64,000 nucleotides of DNA from a bacterium (GCA_030647555.1 JAUSJG010000008.1:129467-193466), one strand, 5' to 3'; numbered from the stretch's first letter, positions 8,254 through 54,046 are shown. Notes: generated from the letters alone by a model not told the origin. Numbers and translations are program-made.

Positions 8254-9764
8254 GGTGATATTATTGTCCCCTCATTCTCGGAATTAGCAGTTTTGTTTTT
8301 TGGAATTAATGTTTTTACGTGTTTCAGATCGTCTTTGCTTAGTTCACCGAGGGCAACCAAGACTAGAATGTATAAAATAACCAGAGCAACATAAATGAGT
8401 GGCATAAATAACGGTCGGACATTAATAAAATAGGTTGGTAATACCATTATAATTGTCGCCGTAAGTCCTTTAAATAACGTATTGAGCGGGAAGGATAAGC
8501 GGAAACGTTTGATCATATAGCCGGCCATAATCGTGGTGCCGATAACGGCGGTAATAATCGTTGAAAGCGCTGCTCCTTCAAGACCAAAGCGAGGGATTAA
8601 AAATGAGCCAAGCACTATGTCGAATGGCAACATTGACCAAGCGATAATTAGCGGAACGCGCGCTTTGTTTGCCCCGGCGGCGATTGTGGAAAGAAGATAA
8701 AAAGCGGATAGCAGGCCGAGCGCCACCATTAGTAAGGTGAGGGGTTGCGCGGCGGGTTCGTAAACTTTTGAATAGAAAAGATGCACCAAACTTTTGCTGG
8801 TTGCGGCGGCAAGGACGGTGACGGGAAGCAGTAATAGATATAGATAACGGAATATTACGCGAATAAAGTCGCGCGCCAAGTCTTCATTTTCTTTCATCAG
8901 GCGAGCGATGCTCGGCAAGAAAATAAAGCCGAGGGCTTGTAAAATAAAATATGGAATACGGGAAAGCGTGGAGGCGGCATTATAGTAGCCAGCCAGCGTG
9001 TCGTCGTGTAAAAACTTTTTTACCAAGAAGAGATCGGTGCTCATAAGAATTTGCAAAGCAATAGCGGTGCCAACAACCGCGCCGGCGAATGTTAATAATT
9101 TATTTAGCGGAAACGGTTTTTGGAAGTGTTTGCGGGTTGCTCTGTAAACAAACGGCGCACCGATGAGTGAAGCAATTGCGCCACCGACGGCAAAACCGCT
9201 CAATGCGCCATAAACGCGAAACGGCACGAGTAGGCCGACAGATCCCGCCAGTTTCGCGAAAGAATATAGAAGAACGATTGATGCTTGCAAAGCAAAAGCA
9301 TGGAGACCGTTGAAATAATTTGTGATGACGGAATAAATAGCTGTTAACGGATAGACGATGGCCGTGAAGGCGATAATGGGCGCGAGGGAGGCATCGCCTA
9401 ATATAGAGGCAATCGGTTTGGAAAAAATGATCGTTCCAAGGGAAAGAATAATTGCGAGACACAATTGGCCGATTAATGCCGATTTGAGAATGGCGCCACT
9501 GTTTGCTTCGTCTTGGGCGACTTCTTTGGAAACGGCAATGGGAATACCCAGTGTTATTAACATATTTAGAATTGTCATAAAAGAGAGGACGATTCCATAA
9601 ACGCCGTAAAGCGAAGGTCCGCCAAGTTTTCCGACTAAGATGTGGGTGATGTAGCCAAGGCCCAATAACACCGCTTGTGCCGATGAAAGGAGGAGTGCGC
9701 CGGATAACCGAGAGGTGCGGTGTATTTTTATGGTGTTTTGGCGCTGATTCATGTGTGTCGGCAT
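8250..9764 (-). CDS. polysaccharide biosynthesis / oligosaccharide flippase (Wzx, PST family)
   Basis: A 504-aa polytopic membrane protein. The N-terminus LGYITHILVGKLGGPSLYGVYGIVLSFMTILNMLITLGIPIAVSKEVA is typical of the PST family. Confidence 0.65.
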   Translation of the reverse strand: MPTHMNQRQNTIKIHRTSRLSGALLLSSAQAVLLGLGYITHILVGKLGGPSLYGVYGIVLSFMTILNMLITLGIPIAVSKEVAQDEANSGAILKSALIGQLCLAIILSLGTIIFSKPIASILGDASLAPIIAFTAIVYPLTAIYSVITNYFNGLHAFALQASIVLLYSFAKLAGSVGLLVPFRVYGALSGFAVGGAIASLIGAPFVYRATRKHFQKPFPLNKLLTFAGAVVGTAIALQILMSTDLFLVKKFLHDDTLAGYYNAASTLSRIPYFILQALGFIFLPSIARLMKENEDLARDFIRVIFRYLYLLLLPVTVLAAATSKSLVHLFYSKVYEPAAQPLTLLMVALGLLSAFYLLSTIAAGANKARVPLIIAWSMLPFDIVLGSFLIPRFGLEGAALSTIITAVIGTTIMAGYMIKRFRLSFPLNTLFKGLTATIIMVLPTYFINVRPLFMPLIYVALVILYILVLVALGELSKDDLKHVKTLIPKNKTANSENEGTIISP

Positions 9765-41936: not shown

Positions 41937-42033
41937 CAAAGTCCGTCTTTGCGCCTGCCGGCCATAGCCTTGGCGACGGCTGGAGGCGTTTCAACGCCGA
42001 AGCAATCTCCCGTGGCGTGCTATAATATGCCAG

Positions 42034-42109
42034 TCGTGGGCATGCCAAGGTTGGGAGTTCAGGATTATCACCCAGATCTCGGGGGTTCGATTCCCCTCGT
42101 GTCCACGAT
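42034..42109 (+). other. tRNA-like fragment: canonical T-arm GGGGGTTCGATTCCCCT plus an 8-bp terminal pairing, but no complete cloverleaf
   Basis: The T-arm is at 42081-42097. gtcgtgg (42034-42040) pairs with ccacgat (42103-42109). No D-arm or anticodon arm could be built. caggattatcaccc (42058-42071) is complementary to ggtgataatcctg (42189-42201). Confidence 0.25.
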
Positions 42110-42228
42110 AAAAAAATAATTGTTTTATCACCAACTTTACTCACCAACCTATTGACAAGTTTTTAATTAGTGTGTACGTTTATTGCAGGTGATAATCCTG
42201 ATTCTCTCACTAAGGTGAGATTGACGAA

Positions 42229-42251
42229 AAGCCGCTTCAAGCGGTTTTTTG
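42229..42251 (+). terminator. intrinsic terminator gccgcttcaagcggc + TTTTTTG
   Basis: A GC hairpin followed by a U-tract. Confidence 0.55.
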
Positions 42252-42336
42252 TTTGAGTTAATAATGATAATCGATGAAGCTGGCAGATATTATTGGCTAG
42301 TAGTAGCCAATAATTAATTGTATAAATACACTACTC

Positions 42337-42365
42337 TTGACAATTTCCATTTTTGGGAGTATACT
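42337..42365 (+). promoter_or_regulatory. near-consensus sigma70 promoter TTGACA-N17-TATACT at the left edge of the GC-rich island
   Basis: ttgacaatttccatttttgggagtatact. Confidence 0.45.
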
Positions 42366-42371
42366 TATCTC

Positions 42372-42790
42372 TTAAATTAAAAAGCCAAAGCTCTGTACAC
42401 GATAAATCGCGCATAGCGCTTTGGCGAACAGGAGAGACCCATCCTTCGCTCATGAATGAGCTACGGAGGGCAAGGCGGATCGCAATTTCCACAATTGAAT
42501 AGACGAAGGGATTATGAGCAACAGCGACCTGGGCAAATATACCAGTAGTTCTCATAATCATCCTTTAAAAAGAGCACGGGGTTCTTCGGCGGCCCCTCCC
42601 TTTCGACAAAGGGAGGCCGGGAGGGATTCCGCGCTTCCGTCACTGCACATACTCCTGGCTCAAATTTATTTTATGCCGTATGCAGTATGCGCAGTGACGG
42701 GAAAAAATACCGGTGCTGTCCCGGTTAAATCTGTTTCGGTCGCGCATGACAGTAGCGACCAGTCGTCATAATCCGAAAAGGAAAAGACTC
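42372..42790 (+). ncRNA. candidate highly structured leader / ncRNA (about 420 nt)
   Basis: It carries four perfect hairpins in series: agccaaagc...gctttggcg, gattatgag...ctcataatc, cctccctttcgacaaagggagg and gtcactgcacatac...gtatgcgcagtgac. The 85-aa ORF track call at 42514 is low-complexity. Confidence 0.3.
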
Positions 42791-42991
42791 ATGACGACAA
42801 AGACCAAATTTCTGACCGTGGTGGCAGTGGGCCACCAGTATCGAACGCATGAACTGACCGGGGTTGCTGGCGAAGCGAAGGAAATCGTTCGCCAAGTGGC
42901 CAAACGCACGGATGCGTTTCGCCAGGAATATATCCTCCGGCGGTTGGTTACGCGCGAGCAACGGACGCTCGCACTGGCGACTACTCGATAA
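42791..42991 (+). CDS. hypothetical small basic protein (66 aa)
   Basis: An RBS (aaaaggaaaag) precedes the ATG. MTTKTKFLTVVAVGHQYRTHELTGVAGEAKEIVRQVAKR... Confidence 0.3.
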   Translation: MTTKTKFLTVVAVGHQYRTHELTGVAGEAKEIVRQVAKRTDAFRQEYILRRLVTREQRTLALATTR

Positions 42992-43083
42992 TCGTCGCCA
43001 CGAAAAAACCGACGGCTCTCTGTGGGTGTAGCTGTCGGTGATTAGTAGAAACACCCCTGATCAAAATTTACGGAAGACCAGAC

Positions 43084-43150
43084 ATCGCGTCTCGGTCTTC
43101 CTCCCATCAATGCCTAGTACACCGGCCTAAATTTATTTATTGCCGTTTTG
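43084..43150 (+). promoter_or_regulatory. conserved upstream element copy 1: inverted repeat CAATGCCTAGTACA...TGTACGAGGCATTG around CCGGCCTAAATTTATTTATTGCCG
   Basis: It is about 62 bp and nearly identical to 53081-53146. Confidence 0.55.
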
Positions 43151-43163
43151 TTGTACGAGGCAT

Positions 43164-43205
43164 TGACGGGAAAGTAGTTTTTTAGAGTCGACCAAACCGT
43201 CGCCA
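43164..43205 (+). promoter_or_regulatory. conserved 5'UTR copy 1 (GAGTCGACCAAACCGTCGCCATGGCGGGGAGGTCTTAACAA) with an embedded strong SD
   Basis: The same 42-mer, with 1-2 mismatches, lies at 52141-52182. Confidence 0.55.
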
Positions 43206-43239
43206 TGGCGGGGAGGTCTTAACAATTAGGAGAACAATC

Positions 43240-43551
43240 ATGGCAGGAACGTACAACGTGATCGTCGATGCCGCCGCCCCCGCCACGACCTTGAAAATCG
43301 GTTTTGGCAGTCCGGCCCAGAACGACCAGATCGTGAAGGATGCGGTCGCGGCCGTGAAGGCGCTCGGCTTGACCGGCGGGAAGCTGGTCAAGTTGAACGG
43401 GCCGGCTTCGTTGCCGGTGGCCGTCGCCATCGGGCACGAGGTGGCCCACCTGTTCGGGGCCGTCGCGGTGTTCGACCCGAAACTCGGGAACAAATACGTC
43501 GTGGTGGTGAGCCACGACCCCGATTTCGCGGTCGGTAGCGTCATCGAGTAG
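43240..43551 (+). CDS. island gene A: 103-aa protein resembling a degenerate (P-loop-less) copy of the NK-like domain of genes B and C
   Basis: LVKLNGPASLPVAVAIGHEVAHLFG aligns positionally with VILCGPPRSGKSCMRQGLKDAIKII of B. VVVVSHDPDFAVGSV resembles LVVVAEIHSDYNGAEDTV of B. The comparison was made by eye. Confidence 0.4.
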   Translation: MAGTYNVIVDAAAPATTLKIGFGSPAQNDQIVKDAVAAVKALGLTGGKLVKLNGPASLPVAVAIGHEVAHLFGAVAVFDPKLGNKYVVVVSHDPDFAVGSVIE

Positions 43552-43711
43552 GGTTCTTTCAGGCCAAATCATGGTTGATGCGGCCTAAATCGTACACGAA
43601 GGAGGTCCGAGTATGACGCTCGACCTCCTTCCTTTTCTTCAGAGCGCGACAAACGTTGTCGTGCGCTCAAGTAAAAGATTTTAAACCCGCCGCGGCGGGA
43701 AGGAGAAAATC

Positions 43712-44293
43712 ATGAAAGTCATACTTTGTGGTCCCCCGCGGAGCGGGAAGTCCTGCATGAGGCAGGGCTTAAAGGATGCGATTAAGATTATTCCGGGTGC
43801 ACCGTATCCGTATGTTATCACGGCGTGCCCGGACGGTGAGGGGGCTTGGTTCCAGGAAACTGTGAACCAGGACCCTGATTTGGCCAAGAGGTGCAAGGAT
43901 GCATACAAGGCCAAGTTCACGCCGGAATTTGTGCAGAGGATAGCGGATTCTGTGCAAAATTGCTCGCTACCGCTCACGCTCGTGGATATCGGTGGCATCC
44001 CGAGCGCGGAGAACGAGGCGATTTGCGCCTCGGCCACCCACGCCATTTTGTTGGCAGGCGACCTCGGCCGTTTGCCCGAGTGGCACGCGTTTTGCAAAAA
44101 ACTCGGGCTCGTTGTTGTTGCCGAGATCCACTCGGACTACAATGGGGCCGAGGACACCGTCCCCCAACTCGGCGAGGACGGCATCTATCGCGGTTCGGTT
44201 CACCATCTTGAACGAGGTGAACAGACCGCCGCCCGCCCGACGATTCGGGCGCTGGCCGAGATTCTCGTCGGGATGGTTACCGACAAGAATTGA
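43712..44293 (+). CDS. island gene B: small P-loop NTPase, nucleoside/polynucleotide-kinase-like (193 aa)
   Basis: Walker A MKVILCGPPRSGKS lies at the extreme N-terminus. The LTLVDIGG block is Walker-B-like. An RBS (ggaaggag) precedes the start. Confidence 0.55.
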   Translation: MKVILCGPPRSGKSCMRQGLKDAIKIIPGAPYPYVITACPDGEGAWFQETVNQDPDLAKRCKDAYKAKFTPEFVQRIADSVQNCSLPLTLVDIGGIPSAENEAICASATHAILLAGDLGRLPEWHAFCKKLGLVVVAEIHSDYNGAEDTVPQLGEDGIYRGSVHHLERGEQTAARPTIRALAEILVGMVTDKN

Positions 44294-44427
44294 TTTCTAA
44301 TCAACCAACGGTTGTGGGTTATCCTGTAAAACCCTCTTCTGATTCGAGAGTGTGTACTCTCGCTGATGACGCCGAAAGGCAGAAATCAGAAACTGAAATC
44401 AAAAAAAATTTTCGCGGAGGAGAACCG

Positions 44428-46122
44428 ATGCGAAGAGTAATTGTATGCGGGCCACCGCATTCGGGCAAGTCGGTGTTCCTGGCTAACCTGCAAAGGTTGT
44501 TGCCAGTTGAGCACCACATGCTCATCTTCGGTGCCCCCGATGGGGAGTGGCATTGGACCAACGGGGCCAACCAATCCCTCGTTCGCGAGACCCGCCAAAA
44601 GCGGAGTTTTTCGGATGACTGGTGCGACGGCATTCTTAATGCCATCGCGCAAGCCGAGCAACGGCTCGTTCTGGTTGACACCGGAGGAAAAAGACTCTCG
44701 CCGAACGACCGGATTTTCCGGGCGTGCGACGCCTTCATTATTCTCTCTTCTTCCAAGGAGGAGATAATTGAGTGGCGCCGCTTCGGCGAGGAAAACGGAT
44801 GCCTGTGCATTGCTGAATTGGATTCGGCGCTGCAAGGTGAAGATCAAATTTATCTGGACGCGAGCGATGGAATTCTCCGCGGACGGATAACTGGTCTGGA
44901 ACGGGGGCAGGAGATTGATTCCCCAGTTCTGGATGCAGTGGCAGGAAAACTTCGTAAAGTCATTGAGGTGAATGCCGAGATGACGGAAGCGGAGCTTCTG
45001 GCCAATATCAACGGGGCTAAGCTGGTTGACCACCTTGGGATCACGGATCGGACTGATCCTTACCTTGGTGTACGGCCATGGCACACGGCGCCGGCGTTGA
45101 AAATCACGGCCGTGGCGCGGAGGTTGGAAACGGTGCGGATTTGGAATGTCCGTGCCAGTTTTCTTTCGTGCGCGTTTGCGACAACACTGCCCGGCAAGGT
45201 GGAGCTCTTCGGAGTTTCCGATGGATATGTTCCATTGCCGAAGGTTGCGCCAAACGGCGACGGCGCGGGCGATCTGGCGTGGGAAGTCGCGGAATTTTCC
45301 GACTACACTTTGGTGGAGTATCGGAAAAACGGATTTTTCACAAAAGAGAAACTCGCCGATGTTGTGCCGCCGGTAGTGAACACCCGAAAGGGTGTTGTGC
45401 TGGCGACAGACGGTCCGCCGATCTGGCTGGACGCGACGATCGCAAGATCGTACGCGAAAGCCGGTGTGCCGTTTGTGGCTGTGTTTGTACCCGTTGAGTC
45501 GGGGCGAGTACAGCAGGACGGAACGCGGTGGGATGAGGCGCATCCGCAGGATGGGCCGTGCGTCGTTATTTATGGCGAAGCGGAAAAGGTGGGGGAAGTA
45601 ATTTCCGTGCCGATCTCGCTTCTGAAGTGGAATGGCGGCGGACGGCAGTGGCAACTGGGTTCCGGTGAGGTCGTAAAAGACCGACCGCATAGCCACGTGG
45701 CGACACATCCGTCGGTTTTGCCACTTGTCGGCGAAGCGCTTGCGCGAATTGAGTCCGCCGGGCGCGACAATATTGTGGAGGAAATAGACTTCGGACGGAC
45801 GGTGGGTGAGATGATTTGCGTCGAAACAAGTAATGACGACGAGATCGTTTTTGCACAACGTCAGAACCGAAAAGGACTGACGCGGTTTGTGAAAAACCGG
45901 CAACCCACGTTGTGTAACAGTGTTACGGTTTGTCTCACGAAAGCGGAAGGAAACGGCCATTACGTTTTGGCCACCGCTTTTGTGGGAAAGAGAGCGCCGG
46001 CAGAGCCGTGGGACGTGGAATGGGCGACGGAGCAATCCGTCCCGTTCTGGAACACCCACGCGCTTATCTGGGGCGCGGAAACTTTTTTGGCGGACACTGA
46101 AACGAATCGGTGTCCGTGGTAA
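44428..46122 (+). CDS. island gene C: N-terminal NK-like P-loop domain (paralogue of B) fused to an uncharacterised C-terminal region of about 380 aa
   Basis: MRRVIVCGPPHSGKSV, APDGEWHW (compare CPDGEGAW in B) and RLVLVDTGG are present. The start was trimmed to the ATG preceded by ggaggag; the ORF track start at 44290 lies inside the 3' end of gene B. Confidence 0.55.
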   Translation: MRRVIVCGPPHSGKSVFLANLQRLLPVEHHMLIFGAPDGEWHWTNGANQSLVRETRQKRSFSDDWCDGILNAIAQAEQRLVLVDTGGKRLSPNDRIFRACDAFIILSSSKEEIIEWRRFGEENGCLCIAELDSALQGEDQIYLDASDGILRGRITGLERGQEIDSPVLDAVAGKLRKVIEVNAEMTEAELLANINGAKLVDHLGITDRTDPYLGVRPWHTAPALKITAVARRLETVRIWNVRASFLSCAFATTLPGKVELFGVSDGYVPLPKVAPNGDGAGDLAWEVAEFSDYTLVEYRKNGFFTKEKLADVVPPVVNTRKGVVLATDGPPIWLDATIARSYAKAGVPFVAVFVPVESGRVQQDGTRWDEAHPQDGPCVVIYGEAEKVGEVISVPISLLKWNGGGRQWQLGSGEVVKDRPHSHVATHPSVLPLVGEALARIESAGRDNIVEEIDFGRTVGEMICVETSNDDEIVFAQRQNRKGLTRFVKNRQPTLCNSVTVCLTKAEGNGHYVLATAFVGKRAPAEPWDVEWATEQSVPFWNTHALIWGAETFLADTETNRCPW

Positions 46123-46132
46123 GGAACAAAAA

Positions 46133-46564
46133 ATGAAGACGTATGCAGTGGCAGTGGATGGTGGGCGGACGGGACACGCGGTGGCAACCCTGCGGGCCGA
46201 GATCAACCTCGGTCTGAAAAAGGGCTACGCGGGATTCCTTCAGGAAAAGCAGGAGGTCATTGACTTCCTGAAGGACCTGTACCGCACGGCAGTCGCGGCG
46301 GGACGGAACTACGTCCCGGTCTGCATCCAGCAGACGGAGATCGTCTACGCGTACCAGACTGGCGATGGTCCGGTAGCGGACGCCGAACCGGCATTGACCC
46401 TTTTTTCCGACAAGTCGCCACTTTATGCGGCGGACATGTCGGACGATCAGTGGAAGGCCGCCGTCGAGGAATTGGCAGCCGCGTTGGCTGATCGGTTCCA
46501 ACAGTTCCGGGTGTACGTGTCGTACATCCAAGTGGAGGTGAAGATCCTCCAGCAGGTGAAGTAG
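46133..46564 (+). CDS. island gene D: hypothetical 143-aa protein
   Basis: An RBS (aaggaac) precedes the ATG. MKTYAVAVDGGRTGHAVATL weakly resembles the N-terminus of gene A (MAGTYNVIVDAAAPATT). Confidence 0.4.
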   Translation: MKTYAVAVDGGRTGHAVATLRAEINLGLKKGYAGFLQEKQEVIDFLKDLYRTAVAAGRNYVPVCIQQTEIVYAYQTGDGPVADAEPALTLFSDKSPLYAADMSDDQWKAAVEELAAALADRFQQFRVYVSYIQVEVKILQQVK

Positions 46565-46588
46565 TACTTCTCCTGCGAATCGATCTTC

Positions 46589-46628
46589 GGCAAGTCCACG
46601 CATTGCGCGCGGACTTGCCACTTTTTTA
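46589..46628 (+). terminator. intrinsic terminator ggcaagtccacgcattgcgcgcggacttgcc + ACTTTTTT, followed by a second hairpin gtgttcgcgatgcgcgaacac
   Basis: A 9-bp GC stem followed by a U-tract. Confidence 0.55.
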
Positions 46629-46706
46629 AAGTTTATCAGTGGAAGTGTTCGCGATGCGCGAACACCTGATGGGCTTTTAGAAGTTTTTTTGAAAAGGAGA
46701 CACAGG

Positions 46707-47054
46707 GTGAAAAAAATCCTGTGGATGTCGCGCCACCGGCCGACCGCGAGGCAGATTAATGCCTTGCGCCAGATGCATGGCGCGGACGCGGTGGTGGAAC
46801 AGGAGGACCGTCCGTTTGACGACGCGCGAGAAATCGTGTGCCGGTACAGGCGAGATGGTTACGACGACATGGTGGTCGTCGCTCCGCTTTCAGTAATCGC
46901 GGTTTTGTGCCAGGAAGGCATTAGACCGCTTTGGTCCGAAGCCACCGAGGAAAACGATCCGAGAAAGATCGAATTTCGCGGCGCGCGCGGGCAAGGGTAT
47001 CGTTTCGTAAGGTTCCGCCGCATTAAGTGCGTGCGGGTTGAATTCGAAGAATAA
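46707..47054 (+). CDS. island gene E: 115-aa protein, a possible second degenerate NK-like paralogue
   Basis: There is a GTG start with an RBS (aaaggaga). KKILWMSRHRPTARQINALRQM aligns with KVILCGPPRSGKSCMRQGLKDA, but the GKS is lost. This is by-eye inference. Confidence 0.35.
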   Translation: MKKILWMSRHRPTARQINALRQMHGADAVVEQEDRPFDDAREIVCRYRRDGYDDMVVVAPLSVIAVLCQEGIRPLWSEATEENDPRKIEFRGARGQGYRFVRFRRIKCVRVEFEE

Positions 47055-47064
47055 GGAAAATGAG

Positions 47065-48279
47065 ATGAACGAAAAAATGAAAGCGGCGATTGCTCTGACG
47101 TCGAAGGTTCAGAGTGTAATGCGGGATGTGGAGACTCGGCACATTGGGCGCGCAGATGTGGTGCAAGCCACGTTTTTGGCGCTCGTGTCGGGGCGACCCG
47201 CGTTTTTCCTCGGCAGTCCCGGAACCGACAAAACCGGGGCGGTGCAGGACATGGCCAGGCAAATTGCCGGCGCCGTGTTCTATGATGTGTTGATGCCGAC
47301 CATCGTGTCGGTTGAGCAACTCCTTGTTGAGTCCACCTCGATCGAGGAAGCGTCCACAGCGGGAGGCGGAAAGTCAATCCGTACCCGTGACACGCTGGGA
47401 CGCGCCGCGTTGGCGCACTTGCTCTTTGCTGACGAGATCTGGAAAGCGGAACCCCGTGTTCTGCAGACCTTGATCGACTTGAGCAAGGGCGACGGGGTGC
47501 GTCACGAAGGCCAGATGGTGGCAACACCGTTGCTGGCTTTTCTCGCAGCATCGAACGAGTTGCCGGAAGCCGAGGGCAACCTCGGAGCGATCTGGTCTCG
47601 GATGACCATCCGCGTGGTGGTAAATCCGTTGGATCGCGCGGGCAAAAATGAGCTGGTGAAAGCCCGGCTCGCTCGCGCTACCGGAGGTAGCAAGACGGCC
47701 ACGCAGACGCTGACGCTCGCAGACATTGAAACTTTGCGAACGGCGCGAAAATACGTCGATATCCCGCAAGGCGTCATTGACGCAGTGTTGGATGTCTACC
47801 AGGAACTTGTTGACGACAAGTCAACGGACTTTTCCTGGGCGTGGGCGGATGACCGGCGGTTCGGTCGCGTGTTCGACGTCATGCAGGCGAAAGCTCTGCT
47901 TGACGGACGGACAGTGGTCAGCAAGCAGGATTTGGCGGTGCTGGAGTGGTTGCTCTGGGACGTTCCCGAGCACATTCCAGTCGTCAAAGCGAAGCTTGCT
48001 CCGTACTGTCGGACGCCGTTTTCCGACGCGCAGGAGGCGGTAGATGCACTGCTCACTCCGGGCGGAGTGGTCGAGTTGGTGCGAAACGGGGACAGGGTCA
48101 AGGGTGTTCAGGCTATCACGCAGTGTGAGGCCGCCCTGACCGAGCTGAAACGTCTCAAGGGGGAGGCGGACAGCGGGACGTCGTCTAGAATTGCCGACTT
48201 GGTAAAACAAGTCGAGGCAGTTAAAGATGACGTGATCGCAGTCGTGACCGGGGCCAAAATGCCCCAAAGGGGAAACTAA
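47065..48279 (+). CDS. MoxR-like AAA+ ATPase with a non-canonical Walker A (GSPGTDKT)
   Basis: VVQATFLALVSGRPAFFLGSPGTDKTG is the MoxR N-terminus. LLFADEIWKAEPRVLQTLIDL matches the Walker B / sensor region hhhhDE(I)(N/W)(R/K)A. The start was trimmed to MNEKMKAAIA after aaggaaaa. Confidence 0.7.
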   Translation: MNEKMKAAIALTSKVQSVMRDVETRHIGRADVVQATFLALVSGRPAFFLGSPGTDKTGAVQDMARQIAGAVFYDVLMPTIVSVEQLLVESTSIEEASTAGGGKSIRTRDTLGRAALAHLLFADEIWKAEPRVLQTLIDLSKGDGVRHEGQMVATPLLAFLAASNELPEAEGNLGAIWSRMTIRVVVNPLDRAGKNELVKARLARATGGSKTATQTLTLADIETLRTARKYVDIPQGVIDAVLDVYQELVDDKSTDFSWAWADDRRFGRVFDVMQAKALLDGRTVVSKQDLAVLEWLLWDVPEHIPVVKAKLAPYCRTPFSDAQEAVDALLTPGGVVELVRNGDRVKGVQAITQCEAALTELKRLKGEADSGTSSRIADLVKQVEAVKDDVIAVVTGAKMPQRGN

Positions 48280-48280
48280 G

Positions 48281-49957
48281 ATGGCCGAGAAGAAAGTCCG
48301 GCCGCTCACCCGGCAGGAGCTGATGCCCCAGCTGGTGACGGACGCGGATGCCTTCACGGCCCTGCGTTACATCCGTCACCGTGAGCAAATGCCGGCATTA
48401 CCCGAGCTTGCGGAAAAAGGACAGGAAGTCCTACCCGGAAGCGAAGGCGTGTTGGCGGATTTGTATGACGCGTTGTGGGATCCGGAGCCGAGCCTCAAGG
48501 AAGAGGTGGCGCCGGATCGGGAGTATTGGAAAAAACTCCTGGGCCAAACAATTGAAACGGCGGCCTTTCAGGAGTTGCACGCGGCTACACAGCTTAAGGA
48601 TCTGCAATCGGTCCTTGGGACAATCGCGATGGGCGAATCAGTCCTCGCGTTGGTATCAAAAAAGGACCGGGATGAACTCCAAAAGTTGAAAGAGGCGACG
48701 CAGGAAGCGGAAGACGTGGCGGACGAGGCGGGGCAGGCCGAAGCAAACGCGCAAGTGGCGCAAATGCTGGCGGATGCTGCTGCAGAACAGTCCGCGGGCG
48801 CGGGACAATCAGGTCAGCCGCAAACCGGTAAGCCTTCGGGCAAACCGGGAAGTGGCAAGGGACAGATGAGTCCCGACCAAGCGCGGAAAATCGCCAACGA
48901 GCTGGCGAAGACGGCGGCAAAAGCGCAAGCCGATGCCAAAGCCGCGCGGGAACAGGCCGATGAGAAACGGCTCAACGCGGAAATTCAGGCCGAGGATTTG
49001 TTGGGACAACCCGGCAGTGACAAGGCTGAGAAAAAACTGCGTGAGTTGACGCGAATCGGTTTGCAGGCCATCAAAGGTGCTCAAGCGAAGGTGGAGGAAG
49101 TTTCCGAAACCATCGAAGCTTGGGGGTTGGAGGATGGCGAGCTGACGCGCCAAGGGATTCCCGAAGCGTTGGCGCTTTTGCAACGCATGAAGCGAAGCGA
49201 AGCGCTGAAAAAGTTCGCCGGCCTTTTGGGTCGCCTGCGCAAAATCGCGGCGCGGAAAGCGCGTGCCAAAGTTTCGGGAGAAGGAGTGCGGGTCACGGTT
49301 CCGGAAACGGGTCGCGATATTCGCCGCGCTCACACCTCCGAATTGGTTGCACTTACTTCACCAGCCCTTCGTGTTAAAGGATTAACACGTTGGGCACGCG
49401 GTGAACTGCGGTTGGTAGGCCAGCGCGCCAAGCAAAAGCTTGGCCACGGTCCGGTGATCGTCTGTGAAGACGGATCCGGTTCGATGGATGGAGCCAAGCA
49501 ACAGTGGGCGAAAGGTGTGACGTTGTCACTCGCCCACTACGCGAAGATCCAAAAGCGGTCGTTCGGATGGGTGCTTTTTGACTCTGCTGTAAAGCAGGCG
49601 AAGGGTTACCCGCAAGGACGATTGTCTGCCGAGCAGATGCTGGAGCTGGCCGAGTCGCGGGCCGGCGGCGGAACGAATTTCGAAGTTCCGCTTCGCAAAG
49701 CCATGGAGATGATTCAGAAAGAAGGCCTCAAAAAAGCCGACATCTGTTTTATCACCGATGGCGAATGCGCGGTGAGCGATGAGTTTCTCCGGGAATTTCT
49801 GGCGGTCAAGAAGACGCACGAGGTCAACGTATTCACGGTTTTATGTGATGTTGGCTCGACGTCCGATGCGACCGTACGGCAGTTCTCGGATCGAGTGGTT
49901 CGCGTTTCCAGCTTCACGGCAGAAGAAGCGGAAAGTGCGGTGTTTGGTTCTTTGTAG
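48281..49957 (+). CDS. von Willebrand factor A (VWA) domain protein with a complete MIDAS; the N-terminal region plus a low-complexity acidic/Ala-Gln linker give a CobT/ViaA-like architecture
   Basis: VIVCEDGSGSMDG is DxSxS. ...GGTNFE supplies the Thr and ...FITDGEC the Asp. The start codon abuts the MoxR stop, consistent with translational coupling. Confidence 0.7.
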   Translation: MAEKKVRPLTRQELMPQLVTDADAFTALRYIRHREQMPALPELAEKGQEVLPGSEGVLADLYDALWDPEPSLKEEVAPDREYWKKLLGQTIETAAFQELHAATQLKDLQSVLGTIAMGESVLALVSKKDRDELQKLKEATQEAEDVADEAGQAEANAQVAQMLADAAAEQSAGAGQSGQPQTGKPSGKPGSGKGQMSPDQARKIANELAKTAAKAQADAKAAREQADEKRLNAEIQAEDLLGQPGSDKAEKKLRELTRIGLQAIKGAQAKVEEVSETIEAWGLEDGELTRQGIPEALALLQRMKRSEALKKFAGLLGRLRKIAARKARAKVSGEGVRVTVPETGRDIRRAHTSELVALTSPALRVKGLTRWARGELRLVGQRAKQKLGHGPVIVCEDGSGSMDGAKQQWAKGVTLSLAHYAKIQKRSFGWVLFDSAVKQAKGYPQGRLSAEQMLELAESRAGGGTNFEVPLRKAMEMIQKEGLKKADICFITDGECAVSDEFLREFLAVKKTHEVNVFTVLCDVGSTSDATVRQFSDRVVRVSSFTAEEAESAVFGSL

Positions 49958-49981
49958 CAGTAATTCTGCCACCGTTTGGGG

Positions 49982-50014
49982 AGTCCGGTTTTTGACTCCC
50001 CTCTTTTTTCTTCC
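49982..50014 (+). terminator. intrinsic terminator ggggagtccggtttttgactcccc + TCTTTTTTC
   Basis: An 8-bp stem followed by a U-tract. Confidence 0.55.
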
Positions 50015-50076
50015 TTTCCAGCTTCGTGTTGGAAGGAAAGAATTGAAGTAAACACAAAAACAAAAGGAGGCCTACC

Positions 50077-52038
50077 ATGGCCGAAGAAAAGTTGATTGTT
50101 TTGTTGGAAACCAGGGCGGGCAAGAATCCTGGCGAAGCGGTTGCCACCCACAACAGGCGGCAAATCGTCTTTTTGCCCCGAGGAACAACGGTTGGAGTCA
50201 ATGTCCGCGTCGTACTCGAAGAGATTACGACTAAAAAGGACAGCAACGGCCGTTCGATGTATCGCGGCGTACCCGCGCCAGTTGAGTACGTTGACAAGTG
50301 GAAGATCAACGGGGACGGAAGAGTTTCCAAAATCACCGTCTCTAAGGATTGGCTCGGCGGCGAACGGGAGGAAGGCGTAATTGAAACGCGTCAACCCGCC
50401 ACGCGTGACGGGTCACCGTGGACACAGACCGAAAGCACAGTAAGTTGGGGTGCAACTCTGGCAAACTGTGCCGTTGATCTCGTGGACACAACGACTACTC
50501 CGTTGGAAACGGAGTATGTCGAAGCGGGTCAACTCGTCTGGAGAAAGACGAGTGAACGAGTGGGGAAAAATACGCGTCGCGTTACCGTCACGGGTATTCG
50601 CGTAACCGCGTTAGATGCCACAACGTGGCAACCTGCCTATCCGCCAGACTGGCAGATTTCAGCGTCTGTGGCGTACGATGGCGGAACAGTTTCGACCAGC
50701 GTAACGTGGGCGAACGCGCCCAAAGAAACGCGGGACGAGATCGAGAACCGTTATTGTGTGTGCGCTTGCAGTCGACAGCGATACGATGTTCAGAATTCCG
50801 ATGGTTACGCCAAGTGCGAAAAGTGTCGGGAGAAAGAACACTGCGTGCGCTGTGGTAAGCAGGTCAAGGTTGCGGTCATTGCTGACCGCCTGATCTGCGC
50901 GAACTGCAGACCGTATGAAGATCGGGAACAGCTCATTAATCGGGTTGTGCCTAATCAGACACGGCAGGAGTTGGCGCAACAAGCGACACGGCTTTTGGCT
51001 GGAAATGTTGTGCCACGGGAGGCGGGAGAAGCGATTGTTCGCTCCACGCTCGGTCAAGTTGAACCGGATTGGAAACGTAATGGCGTAGTCGAGAAGTGTG
51101 TTGGGTACGCCTGGTATTACTTCTGCGAGGAGGGAGTCTACGGTTCCAAGTTTCCGTCGGCAGCGCTGCAGATTCTGCAGGGACTTCCGCAGGCGACCGG
51201 TAACGGCCTTGTTGACCTGGTTTCTTGGGTGGCTGGTCGTCAAAAACAGGAGGAGTGTGAGCGTTGTGGTGACTTCTTCTGTGAAAGTCAGGCTGGGAGA
51301 TTCTTCACTCCTTCGCCGAGCGAAAGTGAATTGCAAAACCTTTGTGTAGCAGTTCGGCTTCGCGGGTCGGAGGCAGATCGTATCGAGGCCCTACAGAAGT
51401 ATCGGGAACTGGTCGAAAAGCTAGGTTCCGATGCTAAGCAGGTAAGCGAAATCGCGGAAATCCTAAACTCGGATGAGCAGGACTACGCAGCAGTTCTTGT
51501 CAAAATTCACAACCTCGGAAAAGATCTGGCTTCGGCTGAACGAGGAGAAATTCTCGTGAATTTCGGCGGTCACTTTCGCATGATGGGCTACACTGGCCAG
51601 GCTCAATATTGGGTCATTCGGCCAGATGGTTCAGAACGCGAGCCTGACGAAGTTGATTACCGGAAACGGTACACTTCGGAAGGTAATAAAAAGTGGTGGC
51701 TGGTTAGTTCGGATGAGTTGGCGATTTCGTGGTTTAAGGGCACTACTGCCTCGAGCCATCAATGTGTCGTCGACAAACTTCCGGCTGGTGGGTGCACGCC
51801 CGAGCAACTGGCAACTGTTGCTCAACTCGAGCAAGAGCTTTCGGCTCGGTTCGAGGGCTCTCATGGTTGCAGTGGTGATCCGAGTCCTAACATCGGTGAG
51901 GGATGGAACCTCAAGTCGAAGGATGAACCGGACGTGGATGAACCCTACGAAATCGGTCCGCCCGCTCCAGCCAACACGTTGGATGTCCACAAACTTTTCG
52001 GCGGGCAGGTGCGAAAAAAACCCGCCGGTCGAAAGTAG
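50077..52038 (+). CDS. island gene F: 653-aa protein with a TRAM/OB-like N-terminus and two Cys-rich zinc-ribbon clusters
   Basis: The RBS is aaaaggagg. GEAVATHNRRQIVFLPRGTTVGVNVRVVLEEI follows a TRAM-like pattern. CVCACSRQRYD...CEKCREKEHCVRCGKQ...CANCRP and CERCGDFFCE are Cys clusters. Confidence 0.5.
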   Translation: MAEEKLIVLLETRAGKNPGEAVATHNRRQIVFLPRGTTVGVNVRVVLEEITTKKDSNGRSMYRGVPAPVEYVDKWKINGDGRVSKITVSKDWLGGEREEGVIETRQPATRDGSPWTQTESTVSWGATLANCAVDLVDTTTTPLETEYVEAGQLVWRKTSERVGKNTRRVTVTGIRVTALDATTWQPAYPPDWQISASVAYDGGTVSTSVTWANAPKETRDEIENRYCVCACSRQRYDVQNSDGYAKCEKCREKEHCVRCGKQVKVAVIADRLICANCRPYEDREQLINRVVPNQTRQELAQQATRLLAGNVVPREAGEAIVRSTLGQVEPDWKRNGVVEKCVGYAWYYFCEEGVYGSKFPSAALQILQGLPQATGNGLVDLVSWVAGRQKQEECERCGDFFCESQAGRFFTPSPSESELQNLCVAVRLRGSEADRIEALQKYRELVEKLGSDAKQVSEIAEILNSDEQDYAAVLVKIHNLGKDLASAERGEILVNFGGHFRMMGYTGQAQYWVIRPDGSEREPDEVDYRKRYTSEGNKKWWLVSSDELAISWFKGTTASSHQCVVDKLPAGGCTPEQLATVAQLEQELSARFEGSHGCSGDPSPNIGEGWNLKSKDEPDVDEPYEIGPPAPANTLDVHKLFGGQVRKKPAGRK

Positions 52039-52054
52039 TTTCACTGTTCTTTTT

Positions 52055-52090
52055 GGGGTCGTTGTTGGATACAACGACCCCTCTTTTCTC
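52055..52090 (+). terminator. intrinsic terminator ggggtcgttgttggatacaacgacccc + TCTTTTCTC
   Basis: An 11-bp stem. The same hairpin recurs at 52993-53026. Confidence 0.55.
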
Positions 52091-52140
52091 TAGCTCATGA
52101 GTGCTAGTCGCACTTGGTGAGCTGGAGTGAAAGTTTTTTC

Positions 52141-52182
52141 GGAGTCGACCAACCCGTCGCCATGGCGGGGAGGTCTTAACAA
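52141..52182 (+). promoter_or_regulatory. conserved 5'UTR copy 2 (GGAGTCGACCAACCCGTCGCCATGGCGGGGAGGTCTTAACAA)
   Basis: Matches 43164-43205. Confidence 0.55.
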
Positions 52183-52195
52183 CGGGAGAAAAAAC

Positions 52196-52948
52196 ATGGC
52201 GCGTTTCATTATGGTGGTGGTGATGATGATGGTGGTGGTGACCGCGCGGGCCGAGACGTTGACCGGAGAAAAGGTCGACGTTAGGATCGACGTGGAAGGC
52301 GTGTCCACGCGGTTTTTTGAGCCGCGAGATATCGCGGGTACGGTGGACGGAGGGTCGCAGGATGCGACCTATCGGTTCCGATACACCCTTCTCCAGCCCG
52401 GCGATGCGTATTCGATCGCGGTGCAATCACGGTCGAATGGTCTTCGGTACGGCATTGGAGTCGCCGTCGATGGCCGCTGTATCCTGACCGGCATGAAGGT
52501 GCCGGCGACGGTACAAATGGCCTCGAGTTGGCCGAACATGTACGTCGTTGGTGGCCGCGGTGGCGAGTTTCGCGGCTGGCGGGAGGATGCCGGAAACATC
52601 CGGCGGTTCGTGGTTTCCAGTGAGGACCGGTCGCTGGCGGCGACGCTTTGGAACGATCGATCCGCAACGGGGACGATCGTTGTCTCCATCTTCCGAGAAA
52701 CCCCATCGCAGGAGCCCATGATGAAGGGCGAGCGCGGGGTAAAAGGGCTCGGGACGGCCGCCGGCGAGCGCGAGGAATCGCGCGTCGTGTCGGTAGACTT
52801 TACATCTCGCCCGGTCGCGTACGAAGTCTTCGTACTTCGGTATGCGTCGAAACCCGAGTTGAAGAAGCTCGGGGTGTGGACGGAGGAGGCAGTCCCGAAC
52901 CGGTTCTGGCCGACGGAGAAACCGTTCATCGGCCGAATCCCCGAGTAG
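52196..52948 (+). CDS. island gene G: secreted protein (signal peptide MARFIMVVVMMMVVVTARA, about 250 aa), function unknown
   Basis: It has a hydrophobic N-terminus with an ARA cleavage-like site. The start was trimmed to the Met after gggagaaaaaac. Confidence 0.5.
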   Translation: MARFIMVVVMMMVVVTARAETLTGEKVDVRIDVEGVSTRFFEPRDIAGTVDGGSQDATYRFRYTLLQPGDAYSIAVQSRSNGLRYGIGVAVDGRCILTGMKVPATVQMASSWPNMYVVGGRGGEFRGWREDAGNIRRFVVSSEDRSLAATLWNDRSATGTIVVSIFRETPSQEPMMKGERGVKGLGTAAGEREESRVVSVDFTSRPVAYEVFVLRYASKPELKKLGVWTEEAVPNRFWPTEKPFIGRIPE

Positions 52949-52992
52949 TAGTTTTTCCCCGAAAAGGATTTCGGGACGAGTGTTCTTTGTCC

Positions 52993-53026
52993 GGGGTCGT
53001 TGTTGGAAACAACGACCCCGCTTTTC
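52993..53026 (+). terminator. intrinsic terminator ggggtcgttgttggaaacaacgacccc + GCTTTTC
   Basis: Near-identical to the hairpin at 52055. Confidence 0.55.
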
Positions 53027-53080
53027 TAAGGTTCATCGGAAACAGTTCGGTGGGTCTTAACGAAAGAACAAAATCTTTTC

Positions 53081-53146
53081 CATCAATGCCTAGTACACCG
53101 GCCTAAATTTATTTATTGCCGACAGTTGTACGAGGCATTGACGGGA
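53081..53146 (+). promoter_or_regulatory. conserved upstream inverted-repeat element copy 2
   Basis: catcaatgcctagtacaccggcctaaatttatttattgccgacagttgtacgaggcattgacggga. Confidence 0.55.
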
Positions 53147-53191
53147 CAAGAAAAAATGAGGTCGTTCTTAACATAACAAAGGGGACAAAAA

Positions 53192-53536
53192 ATGACGCGC
53201 ATGGAACGTGTCGTTGATTGGTTTTTGGGTGTGTATTTTCCGTTCATTACTATTTTTTCTGGCTTGTTTTTCGTGGTGTGGGTATATTTGACCACCAGGC
53301 CGGTACACGATTTTCCGGAATGGGGTTTTGTCTTGTTTATCTGTTGGGTGGTGGTGGCTGTGCCGGCTCTTCCTTTGATGATCCTCACGATAATTCAGGA
53401 AAAAATTCGGCGGATGAAAGATGAGGCCCAGTTTTATCGGGACTGCTACGTCATCACTTTTTGTGATGAGGGTGGCATCACCGAAGAGTCGGCCGTCGAA
53501 ACTGGAAATCCCTACCAAAGTCCGATTTATGAGTGA
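53192..53536 (+). CDS. island gene H: small 2-TM membrane protein (114 aa)
   Basis: The RBS is aaaggggac. There are two hydrophobic helices, then a soluble tail ending CDEGGITEESAVETG. Confidence 0.45.
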   Translation: MTRMERVVDWFLGVYFPFITIFSGLFFVVWVYLTTRPVHDFPEWGFVLFICWVVVAVPALPLMILTIIQEKIRRMKDEAQFYRDCYVITFCDEGGITEESAVETGNPYQSPIYE

Positions 53537-53585
53537 ACGGATTTTGGTAATTCATTTTCTCTACATATTTTTTGCGTCTCGAGTA

Positions 53586-53624
53586 CCACGTCATAACTCG
53601 CTGAGTTCTTACGTGGTTTTTTTA
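53586..53624 (+). terminator. intrinsic terminator ccacgtcataactcgctgagttcttacgtgg + TTTTTTT
   Basis: A hairpin followed by a 7-U tract. GC content drops immediately after it. Confidence 0.55.
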
Positions 53625-53689
53625 GAGCCCATCAATTTTTGGTGGTCTGTAATTAAAGTATATGTATAGATATATTGATACAATAAAAA

Positions 53690-53736
53690 CGGAGATTGCT
53701 TCGCCTCGCTGTTGCGATGGCTCGCAAAGACTGCGT
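53690..53736. repeat. short dispersed repeat CGGAGATTGCTTCG-N17-CTCGCAAAGAC, intergenic copy
   Basis: The copy at 54889-54933 shares both ends and lies inside murC. Confidence 0.45.
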
Positions 53737-53769
53737 TACACAGTCGCTAAAAGGCTATTGAGTCTAAAA

Positions 53770-54046
53770 ATCCCCCGTCGCTACCTCCTTCGCTAAAGCT
53801 TCGGAGGTCAAGAAAGCTTCGGGGGACGCAGTGAGAATCAGACCCTGGGAGGTCGGTTACGATCCGCCCGCCCATTTTAATAAATGGGCGAGGTTCAATT
53901 TTCTCTCCTGACCGTGTCGCCTAAAAAGCACGCGGGAATCAAACAGGCACCTCGGTCCGTATCATTTCTCACTGCGCCCACCGTAGCTCATCAGAGCGAA
54001 GGAGGGTTAACGACTCGATAGCCTTTTGGCGGTTTTTTTGTGCGTG
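53770..54046 (+). ncRNA. candidate structured leader / attenuator RNA upstream of murC (about 280 nt, ending in an intrinsic terminator)
   Basis: There are long-range pairings: cgtcgctacctccttcgct with agcgaaggagggttaacgac, and gacgcagtgagaa with ttctcactgcg. The terminal gccttttggc + GGTTTTTTT hairpin lies about 100 nt before the murC ATG. Confidence 0.3.

Follow-up and report, generated by a model that had tools for sequence, protein, structure and literature searches.

The subject of this analysis is a window of 64,000 nucleotides (nt) from an uncultured, ultra-small bacterium of the Candidate Phyla Radiation (CPR; Patescibacteria) (GCA_030647555.1, JAUSJG010000008.1:129467-193466; coordinates are counted from the first letter of the window), in which a horizontally acquired island of about 12 kb is located between murG and murC. 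The island interrupts a dcw cell-wall cluster, with MraY, FtsW and MurG encoded before it and MurC and MurB after it, and the remaining genes of the window have cell-envelope and polysaccharide functions. Over about 43-53 kb the GC content is 0.55-0.59 compared to 0.40-0.45 in the rest of the window. Ten open reading frames (ORFs) of the island are all oriented on the plus strand; an initial annotation made from the sequence alone had recognised both the high GC content and these ten co-oriented genes, and both were found where it had placed them. We found that four of the genes belong to type III CRISPR accessory families and stand beside a MoxR-class AAA+ ATPase and a VWA protein, a combination which recurs in other genomes and very probably represents one conserved mobile module. 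The insertion and its genes are as follows (lengths in amino acids, aa):

41937-54013, no strand: whole insertion between murG and murC, from comparison with related genomes lacking the island
43240-43551, plus strand: gene A, stand-alone Csx3/Crn3-fold protein, 103 aa (Pfam PF09620, PADLOC)
43712-44293, plus strand: gene B, P-loop nucleoside triphosphatase (NTPase), 193 aa, corresponding to the 'AAA' half of Csx3-AAA proteins (PADLOC PDLC01045)
44428-46122, plus strand: gene C, P-loop domain, catalytically dead Csx3 domain and 160-aa tail, 564 aa (ATG start; a longer TTG start at 44290 is possible)
46133-46564, plus strand: gene D, Mvol_0529-family protein, 143 aa, accessory partner of C (PADLOC PDLC01067, 4.6e-6)
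46707-47054, plus strand: gene E, small conserved protein, 115 aa, immediately 5' of MoxR (BLAST across loci)
47065-48279, plus strand: MoxR-class AAA+ ATPase, RavA-like, 404 aa (Pfam, NCBIfam and PDB matches)
48281-49957, plus strand: VWA protein, ViaA-like, 558 aa, helical N-terminal region and C-terminal VWA domain with full MIDAS
50077-52038, plus strand: gene F, 653 aa, TRAM/S1-like barrel, beta region, two zinc ribbons, helical domain, C-terminal beta domain and disordered tail
52196-52948, plus strand: gene G, predicted secreted protein, 250 aa, island-specific, signal-peptide-like N-terminus
53192-53536, plus strand: gene H, 114 aa, two hydrophobic segments (read from the sequence), island-specific

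Genes A to D make the locus interpretable because they belong to type III CRISPR accessory families, an identity that the initial annotation had missed. A passes Pfam PF09620 with 29.1 bits (cut-off 21) and matches the PADLOC Csx3 models at 1e-19 and 3e-14, while it reaches 28 bits against a cut-off of 55 for the NCBIfam equivalog TIGR02579. Judged by these profile scores A is a member of the Csx3 family but not of the equivalog, and not a paralogue of the P-loop proteins. As residue reference we used AfCsx3 (A. fulgidus AF1864; PMC7371418) with H57, H60, D69, R71 and H80 and the loop S44-G45-R46. A keeps H57, D69 and H80 and carries a lysine at R71; H60 is conserved in a MAFFT alignment and lies opposite an alanine in the phmmer alignment owing to a one-residue indel. 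The loop S44-G45-R46, which contacts cyclic tetra-adenylate (cA4), reads N-G-P in A and in its orthologues in the related loci L005, L014 and L015, and among stand-alone Csx3 proteins the canonical ligand loop is present in that of L002 only. All stand-alone proteins (A and orthologues, L002, L007) keep H57, H60 (for A by the MAFFT alignment), D69 (Glu in L007) and H80, with R71 retained in L002 and L007 and replaced by Lys in the A type. The A type has thus kept the catalytic face and lost the ligand loop, and the reverse is seen for the fused P-loop-Csx3 proteins of L006, L011, L012 and L016, in which the loop S-G-R/K-G-P is kept and all catalytic residues are lost. With its catalytic residues mostly kept, A may have a ring-nuclease-type function.

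B contains the Walker A motif MKVILCGPPRSGKS and is characterised by the motifs GPPxSGKS, PDGEG and hhhhDxGG. It matches positions 108-285 of PDLC01045 at 7e-60, and A covers positions 11-99 at 1e-19. Since the two together span the whole model, A and B are, on these matches, a Csx3-AAA protein split over two genes. C begins with a B-like domain, and its residues 1-400 match AAA-Csx3/C3a67 (PDLC01059) at 3e-48. The Walker A motif of B and the B-like start of C had been read correctly; of the four nucleoside-kinase-like P-loop paralogues that had been proposed, only B and the N-terminus of C are paralogues. The second domain of C has the Csx3 fold, with substitutions at the catalytic positions (H57 to R, H60 to A, D69 to V, R71 to V) and in the ligand loop (S44 to A, R46 to D). 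The phmmer match to AfCsx3 stops at S79, so that H80 is unaligned; the next residue of C appears to be a glycine. The last 160 residues of C match no solved structure. They do match phrog_23674 (2e-20), a family of stand-alone proteins (about 135 aa) from jumbo phages, Rak2-like ones among them; in Pseudomonas phage Milchi (L031) a phrog_23674 protein is encoded at 3959-4414 beside a tRNA gene cluster and a deoxynucleoside monophosphate (dNMP) kinase.

An AlphaFold model of C based on 72 homologues has a predicted local distance difference test (pLDDT) score of 92 and a predicted template modelling (pTM) score of 0.77. Its P-loop domain is nearest to the SIMIBI/GTPase superclass (NifH, BioD, MinD/ParA, MeaB, FtsY/SRP54, HypB, Rab, FeoB), and the Walker B motif of the B and C P-loops is the GTPase-type hhhhDxGG. 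An AAA+ fold with ASCE core and helical lid was not found in the 'AAA' domain of B and C. To judge from the model, the Csx3-linked P-loop is not AAA+ and appears not to be primarily a nucleoside kinase. The nucleoside-kinase fold suggested before is not supported by this, nor are B and C dNMP or adenylate kinases of a prophage, the identity that the initial annotation had named as speaking against its own proposal. D shows no similarity to C and belongs to a separate Mvol_0529-like family instead of being a further paralogue; a homologue with 59% identity lies directly 5' of a C-like gene in L019. Csx3-AAA (cluster 35), AAA-Csx3/C3a67 (cluster 67) and Mvol_0529-fam have been described as type III CRISPR accessory families, and the Csx3-linked ATPase was proposed to be under allosteric control of cyclic oligoadenylate (cOA) through Csx3 (Shah et al. 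2019; PMC6546367). The Csx3-linked 'AAA' domain has been an orphan since 2018 and is still without a function in later reviews (PMC12409355, PMC8284326). Cas families are absent from the large ORFs of the 64-kb window, and in 13 related loci none was found in the genes called up to 9-10 kb away.

The second group of genes consists of E, MoxR and VWA. E is 50-79% identical in 8 loci, and its family comprises about 600 clusters in the database, those with a source name coming from CPR lineages or simply from a 'bacterium'. It has no Pfam or PDB match, and with an hhalign probability of 0.2% there is no detectable relation to the P-loop of B and C, of which it had been considered a degenerate copy. 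The MoxR protein matches the Pfam models bpMoxR (72.5 bits, 3e-20; cut-off 27), AAA_lid_8 (41 bits; cut-off 22.8) and AAA_5 (29 bits; cut-off 22), and RavA in the PDB at 8e-23 over AAA+ and lid, this alignment ending near residue 308 of 404. Aligned to RavA it shows the Walker A motif GSPGTDKT and the Walker B motif FADEIW and looks like an active AAA+ ATPase. The VWA domain occupies residues 390-558 of 558 and hence reaches the C-terminus of its protein (VWA_2, 29.3 bits, cut-off 27; ViaA, 1.7e-12 over the VWA domain). Its MIDAS motif DxSxS...T...D is formed by D397, S399, S401, T465 and D493, which are invariant in 5 orthologues, and the protein also matches phrog_24053 (8.5e-58). The MoxR stop at 48279 and the VWA start at 48281 practically coincide. 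The MoxR-like ATPase, the full MIDAS and the abutting genes are all as described in the initial annotation.

F, the next gene, was modelled with a pLDDT of 84.7. Its zinc ribbons carry eight conserved cysteines and resemble those of ribosomal protein S14, and F probably binds nucleic acid. The model shows no enzyme fold, including no cyclase or nucleotidyltransferase, and no propeller or tetratricopeptide repeat (TPR). For the 44 relatives of F every source name that bears a taxon is a CPR lineage or plain 'bacterium', and no relative is present among 2.9 million viral contigs (IMG/VR). The secreted-type N-terminus of G and the two hydrophobic segments of H had been noted before and were read again from the sequence. 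The proposed membership of G and H in the system fails, since neither has a homologue in any of the related loci compared by BLAST, nor a family match. F is the usual but replaceable last gene of the module and G and H are local extras.

Further loci came from the genomic contexts of remote F, VWA, C and E homologues, and BLAST was used for their comparison. Csx3 fold, P-loop, MoxR and VWA, mostly accompanied by E, occur together in 13 independent loci including the window (the others being L002, L005, L006, L007, L011, L012, L014, L015, L016, L017, L019 and L034), so the gene combination of the initial annotation does recur in other genomes. Both the Csx3/P-loop part and the MoxR-VWA pair are present in all 12 of the 12 complete loci, whether the former is arranged as split A and B, as Csx3-P-loop or in reversed order as P-loop-Csx3. 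E immediately precedes MoxR in most loci, MoxR adjoins VWA and F usually follows, whereas the genomic flanks are different at every locus. The respective bins are assigned to Saccharibacteria, Doudnabacteria, WWE3, Parcubacteria, Paceibacterota and Liptonbacteria, and one to Gammaproteobacteria. This last bin contains L016 (contig CAYHVQ010000001.1), with a VWA protein 53% identical to that of the window; either mis-binning or transfer outside the CPR would account for this copy. The GC content of the module exceeds that of its flanks in 12/12 loci measured, HicAB toxin-antitoxin pairs adjoin several copies, and a scan with the VWA alignment detected only 8 loci among 185,579 species representatives.

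The composition of the module varies towards its end, where a long F, a short F or unrelated small proteins form the last component, and some loci have HD_4 or DEAH-helicase genes as insertions. A second subtype, seen in L017 and L019, consists of a C-like gene, an HD_4 hydrolase, a 90-aa protein, MoxR, VWA and a shortened F. In L034 we found B (73% identical), A and E beside MoxR and VWA proteins just 29-32% identical to those of the window, and no F. As L034 keeps A, B and E beside such diverged partners, the association is older than any one MoxR lineage, and as it lacks F, the latter is the replaceable last part. Just 5' of the module, four loci encode a large protein of 780-1047 aa (L017 4202-7974; L018 3597-7486; L019 3552-6939, here as two adjacent genes of 567 and 303 aa; L034 2759-5844), with a gene for a TrmB-family regulator as its partner on the other strand. 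The large protein gives a weak GNAT-acetyltransferase signal in L018 and L034 and no Pfam match in L017 and L019, and may be a further component or regulator; the window lacks it.

The same data bear on the question of whether two independent systems lie side by side in defence islands, one an orphan CRISPR-accessory cassette with Csx3 and P-loop, the other made up of MoxR, VWA and F. Terminator-like hairpins after A, VWA and F would fit such an arrangement, as would L005, where A and B are separated from MoxR by about 4.5 kb with other genes between and E is located downstream of F. Moreover, Csx3-P-loop fusions without MoxR occur in other phyla, and in L018 a DEAH/HA2 helicase takes the place of MoxR-VWA after a C-like gene. 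On the other hand, chance clustering is hard to accept in view of the joint occurrence in 12/12 complete loci, across two MoxR lineages about 30% identical to each other and in split, fused and reversed domain orders. All genes of the island point in one direction, and A, G and H share leader and hairpin elements on their 5' sides. We therefore consider two separate systems improbable and the linkage of Csx3/P-loop and MoxR-VWA well supported.

The insertion itself was delimited by comparison with relatives having an empty site. In a metagenome scan based on MurG, the gap between murG and murC is only 150-350 nt in five relatives (L020, L021, L022, L024, L025) with MurG proteins 64-87% identical to that of the window. 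DNA homology to the closest of them, L020 (87%), ends at window position 41912 and restarts at 54014. About 12.1 kb (41937-54013) have accordingly been inserted, more than the 42337-53624 that the initial annotation had assigned to the island. The two junctions carry an imperfect direct repeat, ATAGCCTTGGCG (41964-41975) and ATAGCCTTTTGGCG (54018-54031), which is single-copy in L020. On this pattern we tentatively regard the repeat as a possible att core, written ATAGCCTT(TT)GGCG, or as a target duplication. Terminal inverted repeats were rejected, as the left and right borders share only scattered short inverted matches.

Because of the sharp jump in GC content we considered a misjoined assembly, in which a GC-rich contig of another organism had been built into an AT-rich bin. 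Genes A to G are called likewise in an independent public assembly (Logan SRR13727527), there on a separate contig of 9,994 nt, which at first sight favours such an artefact. However, this contig starts and stops inside a 68-nt repeat (43104-43171 and 53080-53146) whose copies are near-identical except for a 4-nt patch; since the repeat explains the break in the assembly, the separate contig is not evidence of chimerism. The same GC-rich module lies within AT-richer CPR flanks in many independent assemblies, and at both ends of the insertion the step from host to island sequence is bridged by low-GC DNA (41937-42630 and 53540-54013). An artefact is thus extremely improbable.

No integrase or other mobility gene is present in the island, and neither there nor in the related loci are integrase, capsid, replication or conjugation genes found. 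Megablast against phage and plasmid collections gave no DNA match to the island, and identity as a prophage was rejected because phage genes and PHROG structural matches are missing. These results also concern the possibility that the genes are counter-defence cargo of a mobile element, with Csx3 as an anti-CRISPR ring nuclease or cOA sponge and MoxR-VWA serving the element like their jumbo-phage relatives. Viral cA4-degrading ring nucleases are established anti-CRISPRs, and those dead Csx3 domains in which the ligand loop is retained could serve as sponges. L018 has a DUF1874/STIV_B116-like gene (9383-9730) about 270 nt 5' of the C-like gene, roughly in the place of the stand-alone Csx3 elsewhere; DUF1874 is AcrIII-1, and its family we take to be the AcrIII-1/Crn2 group of cA4 ring nucleases. 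The island is mobile, and its MoxR, VWA and C tail have relatives in jumbo phages. These relatives, however, are isolated MoxR-VWA pairs without Csx3, E and F, and a conserved operon of at least six genes is far larger than known anti-CRISPRs. Together with the missing phage, plasmid and mobility genes and the lack of viral relatives of F this makes counter-defence cargo unlikely.

A different function outside of conflict would be that of a chaperone or maturation system, in which MoxR-VWA assembles or remodels a cellular complex, e.g. a ribonucleoprotein or the ribosome, as known from RavA-ViaA, CbbQ-CbbO, NorQ-NorD and eukaryotic Midasin. F would then be the RNA-binding substrate or adaptor, the P-loop protein a GTPase-like assembly factor and Csx3 an RNA-end trimmer. 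Several findings are in line with this: MoxR and VWA are nearest to RavA and ViaA, F combines a TRAM/S1-like barrel with S14-like zinc ribbons, the P-loop resembles GTPases including ribosome-assembly factors, HD hydrolase or DEAH RNA helicase genes occur as additions in related loci, Csx3 was originally described as an RNA deadenylase, and no toxic effector is recognised. In contrast, a candidate client operon is not co-located, and the genes are rare and patchy (8 loci in 185,579 species; an empty site in close relatives), of foreign composition in 12/12 hosts, adjacent to toxin-antitoxin genes and replaceable in their last component, which argues for accessory or conflict genes rather than housekeeping maturation factors. 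We rate a maturation role as not very likely. The empty sites in 5 relatives, the GC excess in 12/12 loci, the HicAB neighbours, the rarity and the variable last component all indicate an accessory and mobile nature, and we put a function in conflict or defence at slightly better than even.

Our preferred proposal, to which we give somewhat less than an even chance, is that the mobile module serves in conflict: its Csx3/P-loop proteins would form a switch that senses a nucleotide and controls a remodelling machine of the RavA/ViaA kind, with F as the target of the latter. The domain identities, the conserved linkage, the insertion, the mobility and the lack of CRISPR genes nearby are observed, whereas ligand, sequence of events and defence role are what we infer. 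It would consist of three parts. The sensor or switch would be formed by the Csx3-fold domains and the SIMIBI-type P-loop NTPase (A, B, C), with D accompanying C. The second part would be a RavA/ViaA-like MoxR AAA+ hexamer with the MIDAS-bearing VWA adaptor and E, and the third the variable last component, here F. A small nucleotide ligand, similar to cA4 or an RNA end, would bind the Csx3 folds. A cA4-like ligand would also suit the DUF1874/STIV_B116-like gene of L018. For AfCsx3, cA4 drives the stacking of dimers and the formation of filaments, with cA4 enclosed by the 'D69 face' of a dimer and the 'H60 face' of its neighbour, and filaments are seen with inactive mutants (PMC7371418). Csx3 dimers of the module might stack upon ligand binding in the same way as in A. 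fulgidus and thereby bring the attached P-loop domains into dimers that depend on nucleoside triphosphate. SIMIBI NTPases act as nucleotide-dependent dimers, and since AfCsx3 stacks on cA4, ligand stacking could dimerise the P-loops. The signal of the P-loop would license MoxR-VWA to capture F through the MIDAS and remodel it, E possibly being an adaptor; in known MoxR-VWA pairs the MIDAS holds a client peptide which the AAA+ ring remodels (PMC7159879). This would turn the action of F on RNA or some other target on or off, with growth arrest or interference with an invader as the outcome, and A, as the Csx3 whose catalytic residues are kept, would return the system to rest by degrading the ligand.

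The distribution of Csx3 residues, with the catalytic face kept in the A type and the ligand loop in the fused forms, may point to a hetero-composite site. C of the window has lost both the loop and the catalytic residues, and the idea fits the window poorly. We also considered a more specific version, a CRISPR-independent second-messenger immune pathway specific to CPR/Patescibacteria in which a cA4-like nucleotide signal acts through the SIMIBI-type NTPase on MoxR-VWA as output in place of a nuclease. Its complementary half-sites would be split between the catalytic A and the dead domains bearing the ligand loop (C, fused forms). Such a pathway seems doubtful to us, and we would not expect it to be correct.

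Several observations speak against a nucleotide-gated conflict system. By Pfam, no makers of cOA (Cas10, CD-NTase, GGDEF) are encoded within 9-10 kb in the 13 loci. The loop of A is N-G-P, and C is without S44, R46, R71 and H80; because of these changes cA4 itself may not be the ligand. In L006, L011, L012 and L016 the fused, dead Csx3 is the only one, and an enzyme for the reset would be missing. Toxic effector domains (nuclease, protease, pore) could not be recognised in F, E and D or in the C tail. An E-family protein with 68% identity is encoded in L033 (9001-9351) among DUF1801, PadR and CobW genes without MoxR or VWA nearby, which shows that E is not strictly tied to the module. Finally, in PADLOC-DB v2 neither MoxR and VWA nor E, F, G and H have a match at E up to 0.1. 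Of the whole island PADLOC recognises only the Csx3/AAA/Mvol_0529 accessory parts in A to D.

CPR bacteria account for a large share of bacterial diversity and are not culturable alone, and to our knowledge few recognisable defence systems have been reported in them. A conserved mobile module with nearly all loci in CPR genomes is thus a lead into their conflicts with phages or hosts. The SIMIBI/GTPase-type appearance of the Csx3-linked 'AAA' domain and its constant partners MoxR, VWA and E suggest direct experiments. The joint presence of three type III accessory families without CRISPR bears on whether these originated as stand-alone signalling proteins or are able to revert to such a role. 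If the second-messenger immune pathway were true, the module would represent a new class of cyclic-oligonucleotide effector and provide the first function for the Csx3-linked 'AAA' domain.

Apart from the protein-coding genes, the island contains the following non-coding elements and transcription signals:

42038-42108, plus strand: tmRNA-like tRNA-like domain, 71 nt (Rfam RF00023, 26.2 bits, E 2e-8; gathering score 47)
42337-42365, plus strand: sigma-70-like promoter TTGACA-17-TATACT (11/12 matches; best site of the region)
42368-42640, plus strand: structured non-coding stretch after the promoter, 270 nt (fold z -5.7)
42637-42704, plus strand: long hairpin copy 1, diverged, 5' of a 66-aa ORF at 42791-42991 (z -6.4)
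43104-43173, plus strand: long hairpin copy 2, 5' of gene A (z -6.0; near-identical to copy 3, spacing 9976 nt)
53080-53148, plus strand: long hairpin copy 3, 5' of gene H (z -6.7)
43178-43225 and 52135-52182, plus strand: 48-nt leader directly 5' of genes A and G (copies 94% identical)
49978-50001, plus strand: terminator-like hairpin and T-run between VWA and F
52055-52081, plus strand: strong terminator after F; its repeat at 52992-53020 follows G
53744-54033, plus strand: right-end structured region of the insertion, about 290 nt, with a closing stem of 21 bp and a U-run behind it

The tRNA-like domain consists of a 7-bp acceptor stem and a T arm with GGTTCGATTCC and is without the mRNA-like part. 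ARAGORN is silent on it and reports no tRNA in the window, no Rfam family reaches its gathering score anywhere in the window, and a duplicate of the domain is not present elsewhere in the window. Either a degraded piece of ssrA, left at a former integration site, or a small RNA of tRNA-like form would be conceivable. The promoter at 42337 had been named as the start of the gene cluster. As a consensus site it stands, but it is located about 900 nt 5' of gene A, with the structured stretch, two long hairpins and a small ORF in between, and may not be the driver of the operon. The terminal hairpin of the structured stretch (42595-42629) recurs with 89% identity at 1763-1797 on the minus strand, and the stretch may represent not the island's promoter region but a small RNA or a repeat element of the host.

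The three hairpins of about 68 nt share a conserved AT-rich loop GGCYYAAATTTATTTWWTGCC, a motif found three times in the window, and the diverged copy 1 keeps its stem via compensatory changes. The leader of A and G contains the palindrome CGCCATGGCG; being common to both genes, it suggests a shared regulation of the core operon and the secreted protein G. The hairpin element and the leader are absent from all related loci compared, and the 66-aa ORF is, like G and H, peculiar to the island of the window among these loci. A terminator-like hairpin is also present after gene A. At 53586, the site previously given for a 'strong terminator', the stem measures 6 bp and the loop 20 nt, and a terminator scan does not report it; as much stronger terminators follow F, G and VWA, the island probably comprises several transcription units. 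The structured region at the right end folds at -136.6 kcal/mol (z -7.8 compared to shuffled sequences) and has no Rfam match. Homology to the relative with the empty site sets in again at the 3' arm of the 21-bp stem that closes the region. Elsewhere in the window we noticed a 787-aa ORF without a Pfam family in the polysaccharide region (9765-12128, minus strand) and an ORF (14712-16451, plus strand) that matches ThyX (Thy1) only in part and, with 579 aa, is exceptionally long for a thymidylate synthase.

Comparing the module to known systems, we begin with the MoxR-VWA partners. RavA-ViaA provides the best named sequence matches for the two proteins and has the identical gene order with near-abutting genes. 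In contrast to RavA, the MoxR protein of the island has no detectable LARA-type C-terminal domain, and a context of LdcI, Nuo or Frd is missing. A true RavA-ViaA operon was rejected, since the partners are absent and the NCBIfam equivalog scores are far too low (89 bits compared to a cut-off of 681 for RavA, 47 compared to 500 for ViaA). The housekeeping pairs CobS/CobT and NorQ/NorD, against which the initial annotation had already set its proposal, were likewise rejected: there are no family matches in Pfam or NCBIfam and no metabolic partners, the neighbours being cell-wall genes. The MoxR/VWA pairs of jumbo phages (Bacillus phage 0305phi8-36 gp66/gp63; Moorella phage MTATph1) have the same two-gene arrangement, with VWA proteins 31-35% identical over up to 77% of the length and strong matches to PHROG families 19600 and 24053. 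They differ in that they lie among replication and nucleotide-metabolism genes and lack Csx3, P-loop, E and F.

With the type III accessory families the island shares the matches of A, B, C and D to the Csx3-AAA, AAA-Csx3 and Mvol_0529-fam models. Unlike these, it has no cas cassette beside it, the Csx3-AAA protein is split in two genes, and C has an extra tail of 160 aa related to a jumbo-phage protein. The partners of the accessory families are Csm/Cmr, whereas those in the island are MoxR, VWA, E and F. Compared to the Crn3/Csx3 cA4 ring nuclease (PMC7371418), A has K at R71 and an N-G-P loop, and its context is not CRISPR.

The closest counterparts are the MoxR-vWA 'ternary' conflict systems, of which four types have been described and whose typical pattern includes variable components (Kaur, Burroughs, Iyer & Aravind, eLife 2020; PMC7159879). 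Like these, the module combines a MoxR AAA+ ATPase and a MIDAS vWA protein with a further conserved, fast-diverging component and is mobile, patchy and equipped with variable add-ons. Its MoxR protein matches the bpMoxR Pfam model of the beta-propeller subtype (3e-20) and shares a deviant Walker A without Gly before Lys (GSPGTDKT in the window, GxxxTAKS in Kaur et al.). A beta-propeller ternary system was nevertheless rejected, as the vWA domain ends its protein and the F model has no propeller or TPR. VMAP-C, inactive STAND/iSTAND and FtsH are absent from the island proteins (Pfam, E up to 0.1), the third component F is a new family, and the Csx3-fold/P-loop proteins and E are constant partners that do not appear in that paper. 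There, Csx3 is a rare effector fused to vWA in one VMAP system of one cyanobacterium, and multicellular lineages are stressed, while the module of the window resides in CPR bacteria (PMC7159879). Full-text literature on Csx3 together with MoxR, vWA or Patescibacteria yielded Kaur 2020 or nothing, with the CARF classification (Makarova 2020) not covered. The gene set is apparently undescribed, and of the novel NTPase-based module in the initial annotation the acquired MoxR/VWA module and its undescribed combination hold, whereas the kinase-family description does not. We therefore regard the island module as a further architecture of MoxR-vWA conflict systems, which would gain a fifth type with an interpretable sensor module, and at the same time as a CRISPR-less use of Csx3-P-loop proteins.

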